From the IMG/VR virus record IMGVR_UViG_3300037851_001030, positions 1-64,000 of that record: a stretch of 64,000 nucleotides of DNA; one strand, given 5' to 3'. The stretch is from a virus. The position numbers and the translations under genes were made by a program. Below, piece after piece: positions 33,465 through 41,829 of this stretch. Numbering within the stretch: position 1 is the first letter of the stretch; each line of letters starts with the position of its first letter. The notes beneath the pieces are model-generated. The model did no database searches. It was given only the letters and a program-made list of their open reading frames with translations, and was not told the DNA's origin.

Positions 33465-36400
33465 CTATGTCCATCCCGATGGGAAGTAGAAGTTGATCGT
33501 GACTCCGCTGCCCGTAGGCCCCGTCGGTCCCACCGTACCAGCCCCCGTCGGTCCCGTAGGTCCCGTAGATCCGTCCCCAGACCCACCGCCCGTCGGACCC
33601 GTGACCCCTTGTGGCCCGGTCGGCCCCGTCGTGCCATCACCACCGCCACCCGTGGGACCCGTGACACCTTGTGCCCCGGTTGGCCCCGTTACGGTCGAGG
33701 CCTCACCCTGCTGGCCGGTGGGACCAGTTGGTCCGGTAACGGTAGAAGCGGAACCCTGAGCACCCGTTGGCCCGGTGGGTCCCGTGACAGTTGACGCCGC
33801 ACCTTGGGCACCCGTTGGTCCTGTCGGGCCCGTCACCGTACTCGCCGCACCCTGGGCGCCTGTAGGACCCGTGGGTCCCGTAACTGTGCTTGGGGATCCA
33901 GTCTGACCCGTCGGTCCTGTCGGGCCCGTGACGGTAGAAGCCTCCCCTTGCTGCCCCGTGGGGCCGGTAACGGTAGAAGCGGTGCCCTGCGCACCGGTCG
34001 GTCCGGTTGGCCCTGTCACAGTGGATGCAGAACCCTGTTGCCCCGTGGGTCCGGTCGGACCCGTCACGGTTGAAGCTGATCCTTGTTGTCCCGTCGGACC
34101 TGTTGGTCCGGTAACGGTCGAGGCCTCGCCCTGCTGACCTGTAGGCCCGGTAGGACCAGTGACAGTCGAGGGGCTGCCTTGTGCTCCCGTTGGACCTGTC
34201 GGTCCAGTAACCGTGCTGGCGGCGCCCTGAGCGCCCGTAGGACCAGTGGGTCCCGTGACCGTGCTATCTGCTCCGATAGATCCGGTGGGCCCGGTAGGGC
34301 CGGTTACCGTAGAAGGTGACCCCTGTTGACCCGTGGGACCCGTAGGGCCGGTAACCGTGCTCGCAGCACCTTGTTGCCCAGTAGGCCCAGTTGGTCCCGT
34401 TACGGTCGACGCCGACCCCTGTTGCCCAGTAGGCCCAGTTGGTCCCGTTACGGTCGAGGCCTCACCCTGCGGTCCCGTTGGTCCCGTCGGACCCGTTACC
34501 GTGCTATCAGCACCGATAGACCCAGTGGGACCCGTAGGGCCGGTGACGGTACTCGCGGATCCCTGCTGCCCTGTGGGTCCAGTGGGACCGGTAACGGTCG
34601 ATGGGTTACCTTGCTGGCCGGTCGGCCCCGTGGGCCCCGTGACGGTGGACGCCGACCCCTGTTGCCCGGTCGGTCCGGTTGGGCCCGTAACAGTTGAAGG
34701 CTCCCCTTGTACCCCTGTCGGGCCCGTGGGTCCCGTAACTGTGGAGGCTGCCCCTTGCTCGCCAGTTGGCCCAGTCACCGTGCTGGCGGAACCCGGCTGC
34801 CCCGTAGGACCCGTTGGCCCGGTCACGGTCGAAGGCGTACCTTGTTGACCGGTGGGACCCGTCGGACCGGTGACCGTAGAAGGAGACCCAGTTTGTCCTG
34901 TGGGCCCGGTTGGTCCGGTCACTGTGCTAGGGTCACCCTGCTGTCCAGTCGGACCGGTTGGTCCGGTCACGGTAGAAGGCGATCCAGTCTGTCCCATCGG
35001 ACCCGTGGGTCCGGTTACTGTGCTACTCGCCCCCTGTTGACCCGTCGGTCCCGTCGGACCCGTCACCGTGGACGGGTCCCCTTGCTGTCCGGTAGGACCG
35101 GTCGGACCCGTTATCGTCGAGGCCGCGCCAGGCTGCCCGGTCGGTCCGGTTGGTCCCGTAATGGTACTCGCGGATCCTTGTTGACCCGTTGGTCCAGTCG
35201 GACCAGTGATCGTGGAAGCCGATCCCTGTTGCCCAGTCGGGCCTGTCGGCCCCGTGACAACACTGGGCGCGCCTTGAGAACCGGTAGGACCCGTTATCGT
35301 CGAGGCCGCGCCAGGCTGCCCGGTCGGGCCAGTAGGACCAGTAACCGTGCTGGGAGAGCCCGTCTGACCCGTGGGTCCGGTCACGGTGGAGGGATCGCCC
35401 TGCGGTCCGGTCGGTCCCGTCACTACGGACGCGTCCCCTTGCTGTCCCGTAGGACCCGTAGGTCCCGTAACGGTACTTGCAGCTCCAACTGATCCAGTGG
35501 GCCCCGTAGGACCAGTTACCGTAGATGCCGATCCCTGAGCACCCGTGGGCCCAGTTGGGCCCGTCACTATAGACGGTGATCCCGTCTGTCCTGTTGGGCC
35601 CGTTGGCCCGGTAACCGTAGAAGCTGACCCCTGTGAACCAGTTGGACCTGTCGGGCCCGTCACGGTCGAGGGCGCTCCCTGCTGGCCGGTCGGTCCTGTT
35701 GGGCCAGTGACGAAACTATCTGCCCCGATGGGTCCCGTCGGACCCGTCGGACCTGTGGTAGTAGAAGCCGCACCTTGCGACCCTGTCGGCCCCGTGGGTC
35801 CCGTCACCGTCGAGGCCGCGCCCGTGGGGCCGGTCACCAGACTGGCGGCACCCGTAGGACCCGTCGGCCCAGTCGGACCGACGTTGGTCTGAATAGATAC
35901 GACGGACCCGAGCGTGCTGAGCCGGAAGTCTACGTAGTCGTCACCCGTGCCAGTCGATCGAATTCGGCTCTTCACCGTGTTCGAGTACGAGTTATCCGAC
36001 TGGATAATCAGGGTAGCGATAGCCTTCCACTCAACGAACAGGGCGCTTAGTTGGCCGGTAGCCAGGCCAAAGATCTCGGTCAGAGCCCCATCACGGGCGG
36101 CGCTTACGGTTGTGTAGCGGGCTTGCCCCATCACGATCTTGATAGGGGTCGCAATATCGGTCGTGGCGATCACATGGGCCAGAACGTAATCGCCGTTCGT
36201 GATCTCCGTTAGCTGCCACGAGCCAGTCACCAGCTCGTTCCAGGCAGCCCGTCCGCTGCCCGTCGTTGTGACCGGGAAGTTGGTAGCCGCTACCCGCCGC
36301 CACTCCGTGGCCCCCGAGCGGTAGAGGATAGGGGCCTGAAGGACCGTGGACAACGTCTGGGGCGCTCCGTTGGTGATCGCGTAGGTGATGTCCTCGTCGC

Positions 36401-37490
36401 AGATCGAGCCGTCGTCCACGGAGCACTGAGCGTGAGAATCCAGCGCGCCAGAAGCGTCGGCCGTGATGTTCCCGAGTGCAAGCCCAGACCGGTACCGGGT
36501 GCCCTGAGTGATGTGCTCGTAGAGATGAGTAGCGGCATCCATGATCCTTCCATGCCGCTCATCTCCGACGACTACCGCGTACGCAGTCGCCTGGTTCCAG
36601 TAGATGGTCGCGACGAACGCGAACTTGAGGATCAGGTCGTCCGAGTACGTCATGGTCGAGGTCAGCGTTCCTGACGCATCGAAGTAGACGTAGTGGATCC
36701 CCGTGGTGTTGCTGATCACCCTGTTCTGCGCGGTCGTCTTCACGAACTTCATGCCGCCGGAATAGAACGTGAAGTCCGATCCAGTCGGGGTGATCGTCAG
36801 TGTTAGGCTGCCCTCGGTGAATGAGAGCGTGGTCTCAGATCGGTCAACGAAGCCGTTCTCCGGACTGCCACCTCGCACATCAGAGAGGAGAGCGTAGACC
36901 TTGCTGTTGGAAGAGGCCGAGTTCTCCAACAGCACGTAGTCCGTGCCTGTCGGGGAAGACAGCCCTGTTATCCCAGCGATCTCGCCCGATACGCTCTTGT
37001 GGAAAGCGTCCGTGTCCGAACCGCTCGCTGGACCAGTCGGGCCTGTGGACCCTTGGGTCCCAGTGGGCCCCGTGACGGTGGACGCTTCGCCTTGCGCTCC
37101 GGTTGGACCCGTAGCGCCCGTGGGCCCGGACGGACCGGTTACCGTGCTAGGGCTTCCCTGCTGTCCCGTCGGACCGGTAGGCCCCTGTATTCCGGTTATC
37201 TGACTCCATACAGCGGAACCGGCTGAGGCGTTGGTGCAGACGTATTCGGTCCCGGCCACCGTGTTCAGCCAGAGAGACCCTACTTCGTAACCCAGACTGG
37301 TGTCATCGTTAGACGTGGGGTCGGTAGCCGCCGCATAGTTGTTCTTGACCGAGTCGACGACCTTCACGGCCCCATTGCGATAGACCCTGAGCACCTTGTC
37401 CGTGGTGTTGAACCACACCTGACCTTCTACAGGGGTCGCCGGGTCGGAGGTGAGCAGGTCAAATTCGAGGCTGTTTATCTGAAGAGGCAT
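33465..37490 (-). CDS. Giant collagen-like fibre protein (1341 aa): N-terminal fibre-type domain, short GXY segment, globular domain, then about 50 units of a 16-residue repeat
   Basis: Full track ORF. N-terminus has fibre motifs ([34 protein letters not shown]...AVWSQI). C-terminal two thirds are [16 protein letters not shown] units. Confidence 0.9.
33500..35895 (-). repeat. In-frame 48-nt coding repeat array (GPTGPTGxQGxxSTVT units)
   Basis: A 48-nt period is visible directly in the DNA. Units are near-identical at the amino-acid level but differ at many third-codon positions. Confidence 0.9.
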
Positions 37491-40400: not shown

Positions 40401-41829
40401 AGGGCTCACCCTCAGCTCCCGTCGGCCCAGTCGGCCCGGGTACAGTGGAGCTTGCGCCCGTCGGTCCGGTCACAGTAGACGCGGAGCCCGTCGGTCCTAT
40501 GGGCCCAGTCACCGTCGAGGTCGGTCCCGTCGGTCCGGTCGGTCCCGTCAGTGCCTGGCCCGTCGCTCCGGTCGGACCCGTGACTGTGCTAGCGGATCCC
40601 ATCGGACCGGTAGGGCCCGTAGTGGTAGAAGGCGCTCCGGTTGCTCCAGTTGGTCCTGTGGGTCCCGGCACCAGGCTTTGGGCACCGGTAGGACCCGTAG
40701 GGCCCTGCCCGCCCTGGGGGCCGGTCACGGTAGACGCTGGGCCCGTAGCCCCCAAACCTGTGGGCCCGGTCGGGCCCGTGATGGTGGAGGCCGCGCCGGT
40801 CGGTCCCGTCGGGCCGGTTACGCCGGGGGACCCCGTGGGGCCCGTCACCGCGCTTGGCGCGCCGGTCGGTCCCGTGGGACCGGTCGCGGTAGATGCGGAG
40901 CCCGTCGGTCCGGTGGCTCCCGTGGGACCGGGCGCCGTGCTCGGCGCGCCCGTGGGCCCCGTGGGCCCCATGGGCCCTGTCACTGTACTATCTGCGCCGA
41001 TAGGTCCGGTGGCGCCCGTGGCACCGGTTGGACCCGTAATGGCGCTCGGCGCGCCCGTCGGACCCGTGACCACGGGTCCGACGGGACCCGTGGGTCCCGT
41101 CACCGTGCTGGCCTGGCCCGTAGGACCCGTGACGCCCTGACCTGTGGGCCCGGTTACGCCCTGCCGTCCCGTCGGACCCATCGGGCCCGTGACTAGCGAG
41201 GGGTCGCCCTGTGGACCCGTGGGTCCGGTTGGACCCGTGACCGTGGATGCCGCTCCTGTTGCCCCTGTTGGTCCCGTGGGCCCCTGCCGTCCGGTCGGGC
41301 CCGTAGGACCTGGGACGGCAGACGCCGCGCCTGTAGGCCCGGTGGCGCCCGTGGCACCGATTGGCCCCGTGATGGTCGAGGCCGAGCCCGTGGGCCCCGT
41401 CAGGCCCTGAGGTCCCGCCGAACCCGTGGGTCCGGTCAGGCCTTGGGTTCCGGTAGGACCTGTTGGCCCCGTTACGGTGGACTGCTGTCCAGTCGGGCCC
41501 GTTACGGTGGAAGGCGCGCCTGTAGGGCCAGTAGGTCCCGTTGATCCCGCGCCGCCTGTTGGACCGGTTACGGTAGACTGTGGGCCTGTCGGGCCCGTTG
41601 CGCCGGCACCAGTGGCGCCGGTGGCGCCCACCTGGCCGGTTGGTCCTGTCGCGCCGGGAGACCCCATGCCGGTCGGCCCTGTCGGGCCGGTGGCGTCAGA
41701 CGCCGCGCCGGTCGGACCCGTAACGGAGGACGCAGCCCCCGTCGGGCCCAAGGGCCCCGTCGCGCCACTTAGGCCCGTTGGGCCAGTCGGACCGGTAACA
41801 AGAGGCGGCGTCTTGAATGAGGTGGCCAT
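37492..41829 (-). CDS. Giant collagen-like fibre protein (1445 aa) with C-terminal H-type-lectin-like knob
   Basis: Full track ORF. Ten N-terminal residues, then about 1340 residues of GPT-rich GXY/STVT repeats, then [41 protein letters not shown]...[12 protein letters not shown]. Its stop is 1 nt from the next start. Confidence 0.9.
37775..41800 (-). repeat. In-frame GPT-rich collagen-like coding repeats, less regular than the downstream array
   Basis: GPTG...STVTGPTG units of variable length throughout. Confidence 0.9.

Follow-up and report, generated by a model that had tools for sequence, protein, structure and literature searches.

Two adjacent phage genes encode giant collagen-like arrays with a recurrent S-T-V-T break and probably specify tail fibers

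Collagen-like fiber proteins have been described in phages and prophages. In the EPclA-D proteins of Escherichia coli O157, Gly-X-Y stalks lie between globular ends, EPclA was found experimentally to be a trimer with a collagen-type circular dichroism signal, and proteins of this type act as side or tail fibers; the longest EPcl collagen domain has 322 residues and a single interruption (PMC3368898). Here we describe two neighboring genes, A and B, in a stretch of 64,000 nucleotides (the window) that comprises positions 1 to 64,000 of the IMG/VR virus record IMGVR_UViG_3300037851_001030. Their products share the layout of Gly-X-Y stalks and globular ends, but the arrays run to about 1346 residues in A and 812 in B and are broken 76 and 47 times, respectively, each time by a form of one conserved short sequence.

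A second point of comparison is BclA of Bacillus anthracis, which has a Gly-Pro-Thr-rich collagen-like region, as do A and B. BclA forms a trimeric filament nucleated by a C-terminal β-sandwich, the length of the filament is set by the repeat number, and its Thr residues are O-glycosylated (PMC8968730). However, the BclA collagen region is uninterrupted and belongs to a spore protein, whereas A and B are interrupted and phage-encoded. An earlier note on this DNA, made from the nucleotide letters, had likened the repeats to BclA. The likeness holds for composition, with GPT triplets and abundant Thr, but goes no further: the BclA_C domain (PF18573) gives no match in A or B, for the C-terminal domain of A even at E values up to 10, and no glycosyltransferase was found in the window. 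Some database proteins with the same 16-residue unit as B, P0050 among them, do carry a BclA_C domain.

Breaks in the Gly-X-Y pattern are familiar from animal non-fibrillar collagens such as type IV, whose triple helices tolerate them and in which they are thought to give kinks or flexibility (PMC11923368). The animal interruptions vary in length and sequence and lie at irregular distances, with Lys-Glu/Asp salt-bridge knots on either side; the type IV heterotrimer has about 23 of them. They are named GnG, where n is the number of residues between two glycines (PMC11923368). Unlike animal collagens, A and B repeat one G6G break type about 125 times and have no Lys in their arrays. The same break and the same units of 3n+1 residues are found in metagenomic phage fiber proteins (P0181, P0180, P0184 and P0183, and loci L008, L014 and L006), among which P0181 has regular 16-residue arrays, as in B. 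These metagenomic arrays have fewer breaks than A, and in several of the large ones the repeats are recent at the DNA level, the codon identity between units being 0.57-0.75. The 735-kb uncultured phage LR756501 encodes a 3487-residue collagen-like protein in which the central globular module of B recurs, at 30% identity across 87% of its length, between very long arrays, but these are near-continuous Gly-Thr-Ser triplets without the S-T-V-T break, unlike A and B. In LR756501 that gene is followed by several open reading frames (ORFs) for concanavalin-like or lectin-like proteins that share a C-terminal motif ending QNYNALKGRFGL.

A and B correspond to the two giant collagen-like genes of the earlier note, with 1445 and 1341 codons, and its description is borne out by the ORFs, by the junction TGA-T-ATG, which leaves 1 nt between the A stop and the B start, and by Pfam. 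The Pfam Collagen family (PF01391, cutoff 27.2 bits) matches A with 104.7 bits (E = 2e-30) and B with 89.8 bits (E = 1e-25). In the A array, 253 Gly-to-Gly spacings are of three residues, 76 are of seven and 19 are irregular (10 Gly-X-Gly, three Gly-Gly, five spacings of five and one of six). The main array of B has 149 spacings of three and 47 of seven, and a short N-proximal array adds two more of seven, for a total of 49. Each seven-residue spacing is of the G-x-x-S-T-V-T-G type, a G6G interruption at which the Gly register moves by one residue. Because of this shift at every break, the array cannot be an uninterrupted triple helix, as the earlier note had also argued from the offset register; most runs between breaks have only two to four triplets.

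The grammar can be written as (GXY)n plus four residues, which gives a unit of 3n+1 residues. A 16-residue unit, which the earlier note had assigned to both genes, describes B well, where 41 of the 47 breaks in the main array close exact units of four triplets plus the insert. The consensus is GPTGPTGxQGxxSTVT, with positions 1-7, 10 and 13-16 near-invariant and positions 8, 9, 11 and 12 variable. It describes A only in part, since A is a mixture of 10-, 13-, 16- and 19-residue units, all of them 3n+1; four triplets precede the break in 32 cases, three in 24, two in eight and five in seven. Within segments, Gly is strictly kept at every third residue over the 402 triplets of A and B, Pro fills position X in 182 of the 253 A triplets and in 101 of the 149 B triplets, and Thr fills position Y in 190 and 105 of them, respectively. 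ORFs on the plus strand inside the arrays, with VGPVGP-type translations, were rejected as mirror images of the Gly-Pro-Thr coding strand.

The first position of the insert is Ser in 125 of the 125 breaks of A and B (Ala replaces it in a few relatives), the third is nearly always Val or Ile, and the fourth is Thr and rarely Pro; the full insert reads STVT in 83 breaks and STIT in 16. An invariant small Ser at position 1 combined with Val, Ile or Leu at position 3 points to what may be a defined local structure rather than a loose linker. The 2158 array residues of A and B include very few charged residues, no Lys and no KGE or KGD triplets, and they lack His, Cys and Trp.

This composition bears on an alternative, which we regard as unlikely, in which the arrays are not helical at all. 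They would instead be extended, mucin-like spacers of Ser, Thr and Pro, in polyproline-II conformation or disordered and probably O-glycosylated, that hold the tips away from the particle, and the Gly periodicity would be inherited and structurally dispensable. Ser plus Thr makes up 34% of the arrays and Pro 15-16%, charged clamps are absent and the triplet runs are short, all of which would suit such a spacer, as would the finding that (Gly-Pro-Thr)10 alone is a random coil (PMC11923368). However, strict Gly across 402 triplets and across hundreds of diverged relatives is hard to explain without axial Gly packing, Ser, small and invariant at the break, suits a slot like that of Gly, and related collagen-like phage fiber proteins are proven triple helices (PMC3368898).

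The 16-residue unit could also belong to another trimeric fold, a β-spiral or β-helix-like shaft in which S-T-V-T would be the strand and Gly-Pro-Thr the turns; we consider this very unlikely. Phage and adenovirus shafts are built from repeats of about 15 residues, a length close to that of the unit here, the β-branched Thr-Val-Thr is conserved in the break, and the unit lengths are quantized. A single hydrophobic residue per 16 is too few for a β-spiral core, though, and the lengths vary freely by three residues (10, 13, 16, 19, 22, 25), as collagen triplets would and unlike a fixed β repeat. The strong Pfam Collagen matches also speak against such a shaft. Taken together, the Gly periodicity, the unit lengths that change in steps of a triplet, the Ser at the Gly slot and the precedent of prophage collagen-like side-tail-fiber proteins, which are experimentally trimeric and triple-helical (PMC3368898), favor collagen-type segments joined by a structured node.

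From the sequence grammar, the domain homologies and the genomic context we infer that A and B are trimeric collagen-like tail fibers of a large tailed phage with a contractile-type baseplate, a conclusion that we hold to be probable but well short of certain. In this model, each protein would form a parallel homotrimer in which triple-helical segments of two to five Gly-X-Y triplets, mostly Gly-Pro-Thr, alternate with an S-T-V-T node. At the node, Ser would occupy the axial position of Gly and Thr-Val would stand in for an X-Y pair; the final Thr, inserted as a single extra residue, would reset the register. The absence of Lys means that the arrays would do this without the Lys-Glu/Asp clamps that flank interruptions in other collagens. 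If the arrays are triple-helical, a rise of 0.286 nm per residue would give a long, thin, segmented rod of about 385 nm for A and about 230 nm for B. The two may be separate fibers or may be joined end to end. The nodes may make the rod flexible between segments, may hold the chains in register where so repetitive a sequence could otherwise let them slip, and may serve as glycosylation sites.

The globular part of A may be a fiber tip. This C-terminal domain has 88 residues, belongs to a small conserved family with 19 relatives in the database and is linked to the Gp53-like_C family of Pfam through one of them, P0168. Its AlphaFold2 model (predicted local distance difference test, pLDDT, 86.9) lies nearest in Foldseek to the C-terminal tip of the Pam1 cyanophage tailspike, to H-type lectins and to the R-pyocin fiber, and it is also close to the tailspike tips of AP22 gp54, LKA1 gp49 and phi297 gp61. 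These matches are weak by E value yet consistent in kind. The domain is probably the trimerizing and receptor-binding end. The A trimer would then be nucleated by this lectin-like tip, which would also bind the host surface.

In B, trimerization would start from the N-terminal domain and the central globular module, and the N-terminus would be the likelier point of attachment to the baseplate. The central module has 40 metagenomic homologs at no more than 52% identity, most of them fiber-sized proteins without collagen arrays. Across these 40, Glu156, His158 and Asp210-Glu211-Asp212 (numbering of module alignment A1) are invariant, which looks like a putative metal-binding or catalytic site. 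The AlphaFold2 model of the module (pLDDT 88.6) matches proteins of uncultured Caudovirales in BFVD, one of which has a Peptidase_S74 chaperone domain, with a template-modeling (TM) score of 0.78; all matches of the module are to uncharacterized phage fiber-like proteins. Against PDB, Foldseek found nothing closer than weak matches to baseplate chains of phi812 (TM 0.29 or lower), and a sequence search of PDB with the module profile returned nothing. DUF2793 was considered for the N-terminal domain of B and rejected, with no Pfam match even at E values up to 10. An exact look-up of gene B and of the protein P0161 found no record.

The genomic setting is of the kind expected for tail fibers: A, B and the adjoining gene C are tightly packed in a tail or baseplate module, and a Baseplate_J-like gene follows about 1.5 kb downstream on the same strand. 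The earlier note had proposed a virion-fiber role, and both this neighborhood and the predicted tip domain of A fit that proposal.

Several observations weigh against the trimeric fiber model. The working definition of a triple-helical domain is six contiguous Gly-X-Y triplets (PMC11923368), whereas the runs before breaks in the main array of B are all two to four triplets long, and of the 76 A runs closed by a seven-residue break only five have six triplets or more, most having two to four. Interruptions normally destabilize triple helices. The S-T-V-T break has no solved structure, and the array gave no match to PDB sequences. The (Gly-Pro-Thr)10 peptide folds only if glycosylated (PMC11923368), so that folding here may need glycosylation or strong nucleation, and no glycosyltransferase family was detected among ORFs of at least 250 residues in this 64-kb window of a contig that is probably about 210 kb long. 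A has almost no N-terminal domain (12 residues) that could serve for attachment. The PHROG matches of A and B to tail-fiber families (6320, 5073 and 819; E values down to 1e-114) lie in the collagen repeat, which drives them. The Foldseek matches of the A tip in PDB have E values of 0.018-0.14, none at or below 0.001, and query TM scores (TMq) of 0.42-0.55. Gp53-like_C, a putative tail-fiber C-terminal domain in Pfam, scores 19.2 bits in A, below its cutoff of 24.9; in P0168, a relative 60% identical to A, it scores 32 bits, above the cutoff. Finally, positions 33,991-39,908, the middle of the arrays, rest on a single assembly.

The soundness of the arrays could be examined with an independent assembly of run SRR12687606 (k = 31), from which two contigs were compared with the window. 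They agree with it at every base over 28,645-33,990 and 39,909-52,874, a total of 18.3 kb, of which 1921 nt lie in A and 526 nt in B. Both contigs end inside the arrays at repeated 31-mers, as expected for a k = 31 assembler. We consider it very unlikely that an assembly artifact accounts for the repeat number or for some of the array sequence. Such an artifact would be in keeping with the break of the independent assembly inside both arrays, with the middle part that has no second source, and with the lack of a related genome for comparison in IMG/VR and JGI scans with protein C. The base-by-base agreement, the coincidence of the contig ends with repeated 31-mers, and reading frames that stay open for 4.0 and 4.3 kb argue against it. 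No exact repeat within or between the arrays exceeds 80 nt, less than the length of an ordinary read, so that arrays scrambled to this degree can be assembled.

The scrambling itself is a second distinctive property of the locus. The 16-residue units of B are 83% identical in protein and 66% identical in DNA. At positions with the same amino acid, two units use the same codon in a fraction of 0.276 of cases in B and 0.304 in A. When codons were resampled from 12 other genes of the window in 300 simulations, the expected fractions were 0.362 ± 0.012 for B and 0.339 ± 0.011 for A, and none of the 300 simulations was as low as observed; uniform codon choice would give about 0.26. The A+T content at four-fold sites is 0.43 in the B array and 0.34 in the A array, compared with 0.21 in the reference genes and 0.24-0.28 in the non-repeat domains of A and B. 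Likewise, the G+C content at third codon positions is 0.58 in the main array of B and 0.77 in its globular module. Among the Gly codons of B, GGC falls from 0.45 to 0.17, and among the Gln codons CAA rises from 0.13 to 0.43. The flattening of codon usage is thus confined to the arrays. Horizontal acquisition was tried as a source of the odd codon usage and rejected: the non-repeat parts of A and B use normal codons, so foreign origin does not explain the scrambling.

Purifying selection maintains the protein sequence of the units, while codon choice at their synonymous sites is close to even. This agrees with the earlier note, which had described a conserved peptide with scrambled third positions. 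Its further suggestion, that long DNA repeats are avoided, survives as one reading of the codon data and has to accommodate the repeats that do exist. Exact direct repeats within genes reach 41 and 38 nt in B and 49, 33 and 30 nt in A (about 22 nt in resampled arrays), and an 80-nt tract is identical between A and B. Against the lower background identity of the two genes, this tract suggests a recent exchange, by gene conversion or the transfer of units. Scrambling would keep exact repeats short, at no more than 49 nt within a gene, and we read it as possible selection that protects a repetitive region of 6.5 kb from slippage and recombination, although other causes are possible.

One such cause, which we think possible but on the unlikely side, is unrelated to repeat instability. 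The arrays may spread the decoding load of Gly, Pro and Thr over all tRNAs, or codon choice may limit G+C content and the self-complementarity of GGNCCN in DNA or mRNA. Together these residues account for 65% of A and 51% of B, the first two codon positions already stand at 62-83% G+C, and the flattening is mainly from C- or G-ending to A- or T-ending codons (third-base A+T 0.34-0.43, against 0.21 in the reference genes). Long repeats are also not strictly excluded, as exact ones reach 49 nt inside a gene and 80 nt between the two genes. On the other hand, the large arrays at L008, L014, L104, L106 and L042, which carry the same amino-acid load, retain codon identities of 0.57-0.75 between units, compared with about 0.27-0.31 here. 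Load alone therefore does not force scrambling, and scrambling is not general among such arrays. The value of 0.276 in B also lies close to the floor of 0.26 for uniform choice. Three smaller arrays (L006, L062 and L013) are as scrambled as A and B.

The break is not peculiar to this genome. A survey of IMG/VR with a degenerate DNA pattern for the break peptide found at least 120 loci, in which S-x-V-x breaks are 13, 19, 16, 22, 25, 28 or 31 residues apart, all 3n+1, and the same pattern found 72 loci in bacterial assemblies with one genome per species. The phyla of the bacterial loci include Bacillota, Actinomycetota, Proteobacteria, Patescibacteria, Bacteroidota, Acidobacteriota and Verrucomicrobiota. 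The break at 3n+1 spacings is widespread in phage fiber genes. Among the best 120 matches to a 208-residue piece of the B array, 87 have at least three such breaks, and the end domains vary, including BclA_C, DUF2793 and PF18454.

Searched against 1.84 billion representative proteins, the B array gave 12,788 matches at E values of 0.001 or less, 171 of them at 1e-30 or less. The median among the best 150 is six breaks; only P0183, with 70 breaks in 10-residue units, exceeds the 47 of B, and none reaches the 76 of A. The longest regular 16-residue arrays among these 150 have 20-23 consecutive units (P0184, P0180 and P0181). Apart from P0183, which has more breaks than B, A and B are the largest arrays of the break found here, and they stand out by their scale, their regularity, their scrambled codons and their lack of Lys clamps. 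An important caveat is that short-read metagenome assemblies under-represent long repeats, so larger arrays may exist. A tblastn search of phages with the array found nothing, most likely an effect of low-complexity filtering, which masks the query. Literature searches found no paper with the break motif in the collection searched, and searches on collagen-like phage fibers with interruptions or in jumbo phages returned nothing relevant.

Since collagen-like phage fibers are known and the break motif is common in databases, A and B are not a new kind of system but an extreme variant of the collagen-like phage fiber, built from a common break motif. They offer a natural test case for a triple helix with a frequent, identical interruption and no charged clamps. 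The lack of Lys in their arrays is at odds with the recent general claim that Lys-Glu/Asp salt bridges make up for interruptions (PMC11923368). The array-only flattening of codon usage is a clean natural case of long protein repeats encoded in non-repetitive DNA, and it is relevant both to the stability of repeats and to how synthetic repetitive proteins are designed. The long tail fiber of T4 is about 145 nm long. Fibers of several hundred nanometers would, if real, be exceptional for a phage and would matter for host finding by large phages.

A broader proposal, which we offer tentatively and whose full form we regard as doubtful, is that the arrays represent a structurally undescribed architecture, a segmented collagen. 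In it, a defined three-chain node, in which Ser sits where Gly would, Val residues cluster and the register is reset by one residue, would take over from salt-bridge clamps in holding three highly repetitive chains in register and in setting flexibility. The architecture would be used by phages of many host phyla, and in this window its codons would be under selection for maximal DNA diversity, which would keep the array stable. If so, the window would hold the most extreme segmented collagen found here, with about 125 nodes and more than 600 nm of fiber in total.

The features of the locus are collected in the table.

Table. Positions of the genes, domains and repeats discussed in the text, numbered along the window unless another record is named
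Feature	Position	Strand	Description
Gene A	37492..41829	minus	ORF, 1445 aa; 12-residue N-terminus, ~1346-residue array, ~88-residue C-terminal domain
Array of gene A	37756..41793	minus	residues 13-1358; 76 S-T-V-T-type breaks
C-terminal tip domain of A	37495..37755	minus	predicted small β-sandwich, Gp53-like_C family (subthreshold for A itself)
Gene B	33465..37490	minus	ORF, 1341 aa; Pfam, PHROG, Gly census
Domain order of B			N-terminal domain 1-97, short collagen-like 98-160, module ~160-518, array 519-1330, 12-residue tail
Central globular module of B	35937..37013	minus	~residues 160-518, ~360 residues
Main array of gene B	33501..35936	minus	residues 519-1330 (812 residues)
80-nt tract identical in A and B	38903-38982 (A) and 34234-34313 (B)	minus	A/B background ~65% DNA identity
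Gene C	30645..33461	minus	ORF, 938 aa; start 3 nt past B stop
tRNA-Ala (anticodon UGC)	30027-30100	minus	ARAGORN and Rfam; only RNA family match in window
Baseplate_J-like wedge gene	27778..29169	minus	Pfam PF04865, E 3e-7, 30.3 bits (cutoff 21.1); PHROG 6, baseplate wedge subunit
Small collagen-like gene	58819..60030	minus	403 aa; PHROG tail-fiber matches, translation, 7 Gly spacings of 7
LR756501.1 3487-aa ORF	ORF 2356-12819 in locus L001 (393681-412697)		

Gene C is probably part of the same fiber or spike operon as A and B. Its product matched nothing in Pfam, in PHROG or among PDB sequences, and scans of IMG/VR and of JGI metagenomes turned up no relatives. Downstream of C lie a 165-residue ORF, the tRNA-Ala gene and two small ORFs, followed by the Baseplate_J-like gene; upstream of A are two or three small ORFs and a weak holin-like gene. 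The small collagen-like protein of 403 residues has S-T-V-T breaks between a 150-residue N-terminal domain and a 75-residue C-terminal domain, and its gene matches the same PHROG tail-fiber families as A and B. With this gene, the number of phage proteins that use the break module rises to at least three.

A database protein identical to the C-terminus of A sits on a contig of 210,455 bp, which suggests a phage of jumbo size, and the source contig of A and B is probably this length, about 210 kb. DNA comparison of 20 kb of the window with known phage genomes gave no match, nor did a tblastn search of phages with the baseplate protein. The lineage appears to be essentially undescribed, without close described relatives.

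Most other large ORFs of the window have no Pfam or PHROG family. Among them are five ORFs of 424-835 residues in 48,595-58,810 on the minus strand; the sole weak match of the ORF at 54,998-56,272 is a PHROG of unknown function (E = 3e-4). A plus-strand ORF of 279 residues at 19,335-20,174 matches the caspase family Peptidase_C14 (E = 8e-27), which is unusual for a phage structural region, and it lies on the strand opposite to most of its neighbors. Minus-strand ORFs encode a DHH/DHHA1 phosphoesterase-like protein (44,941-45,771) and a protein with a DUF4379 treble-clef zinc-finger domain (46,058-47,176). A further minus-strand ORF at 10,996-11,688 has a nucleoside 2-deoxyribosyltransferase-like domain (E = 1e-11) and may be linked to phage nucleotide or DNA-base metabolism.

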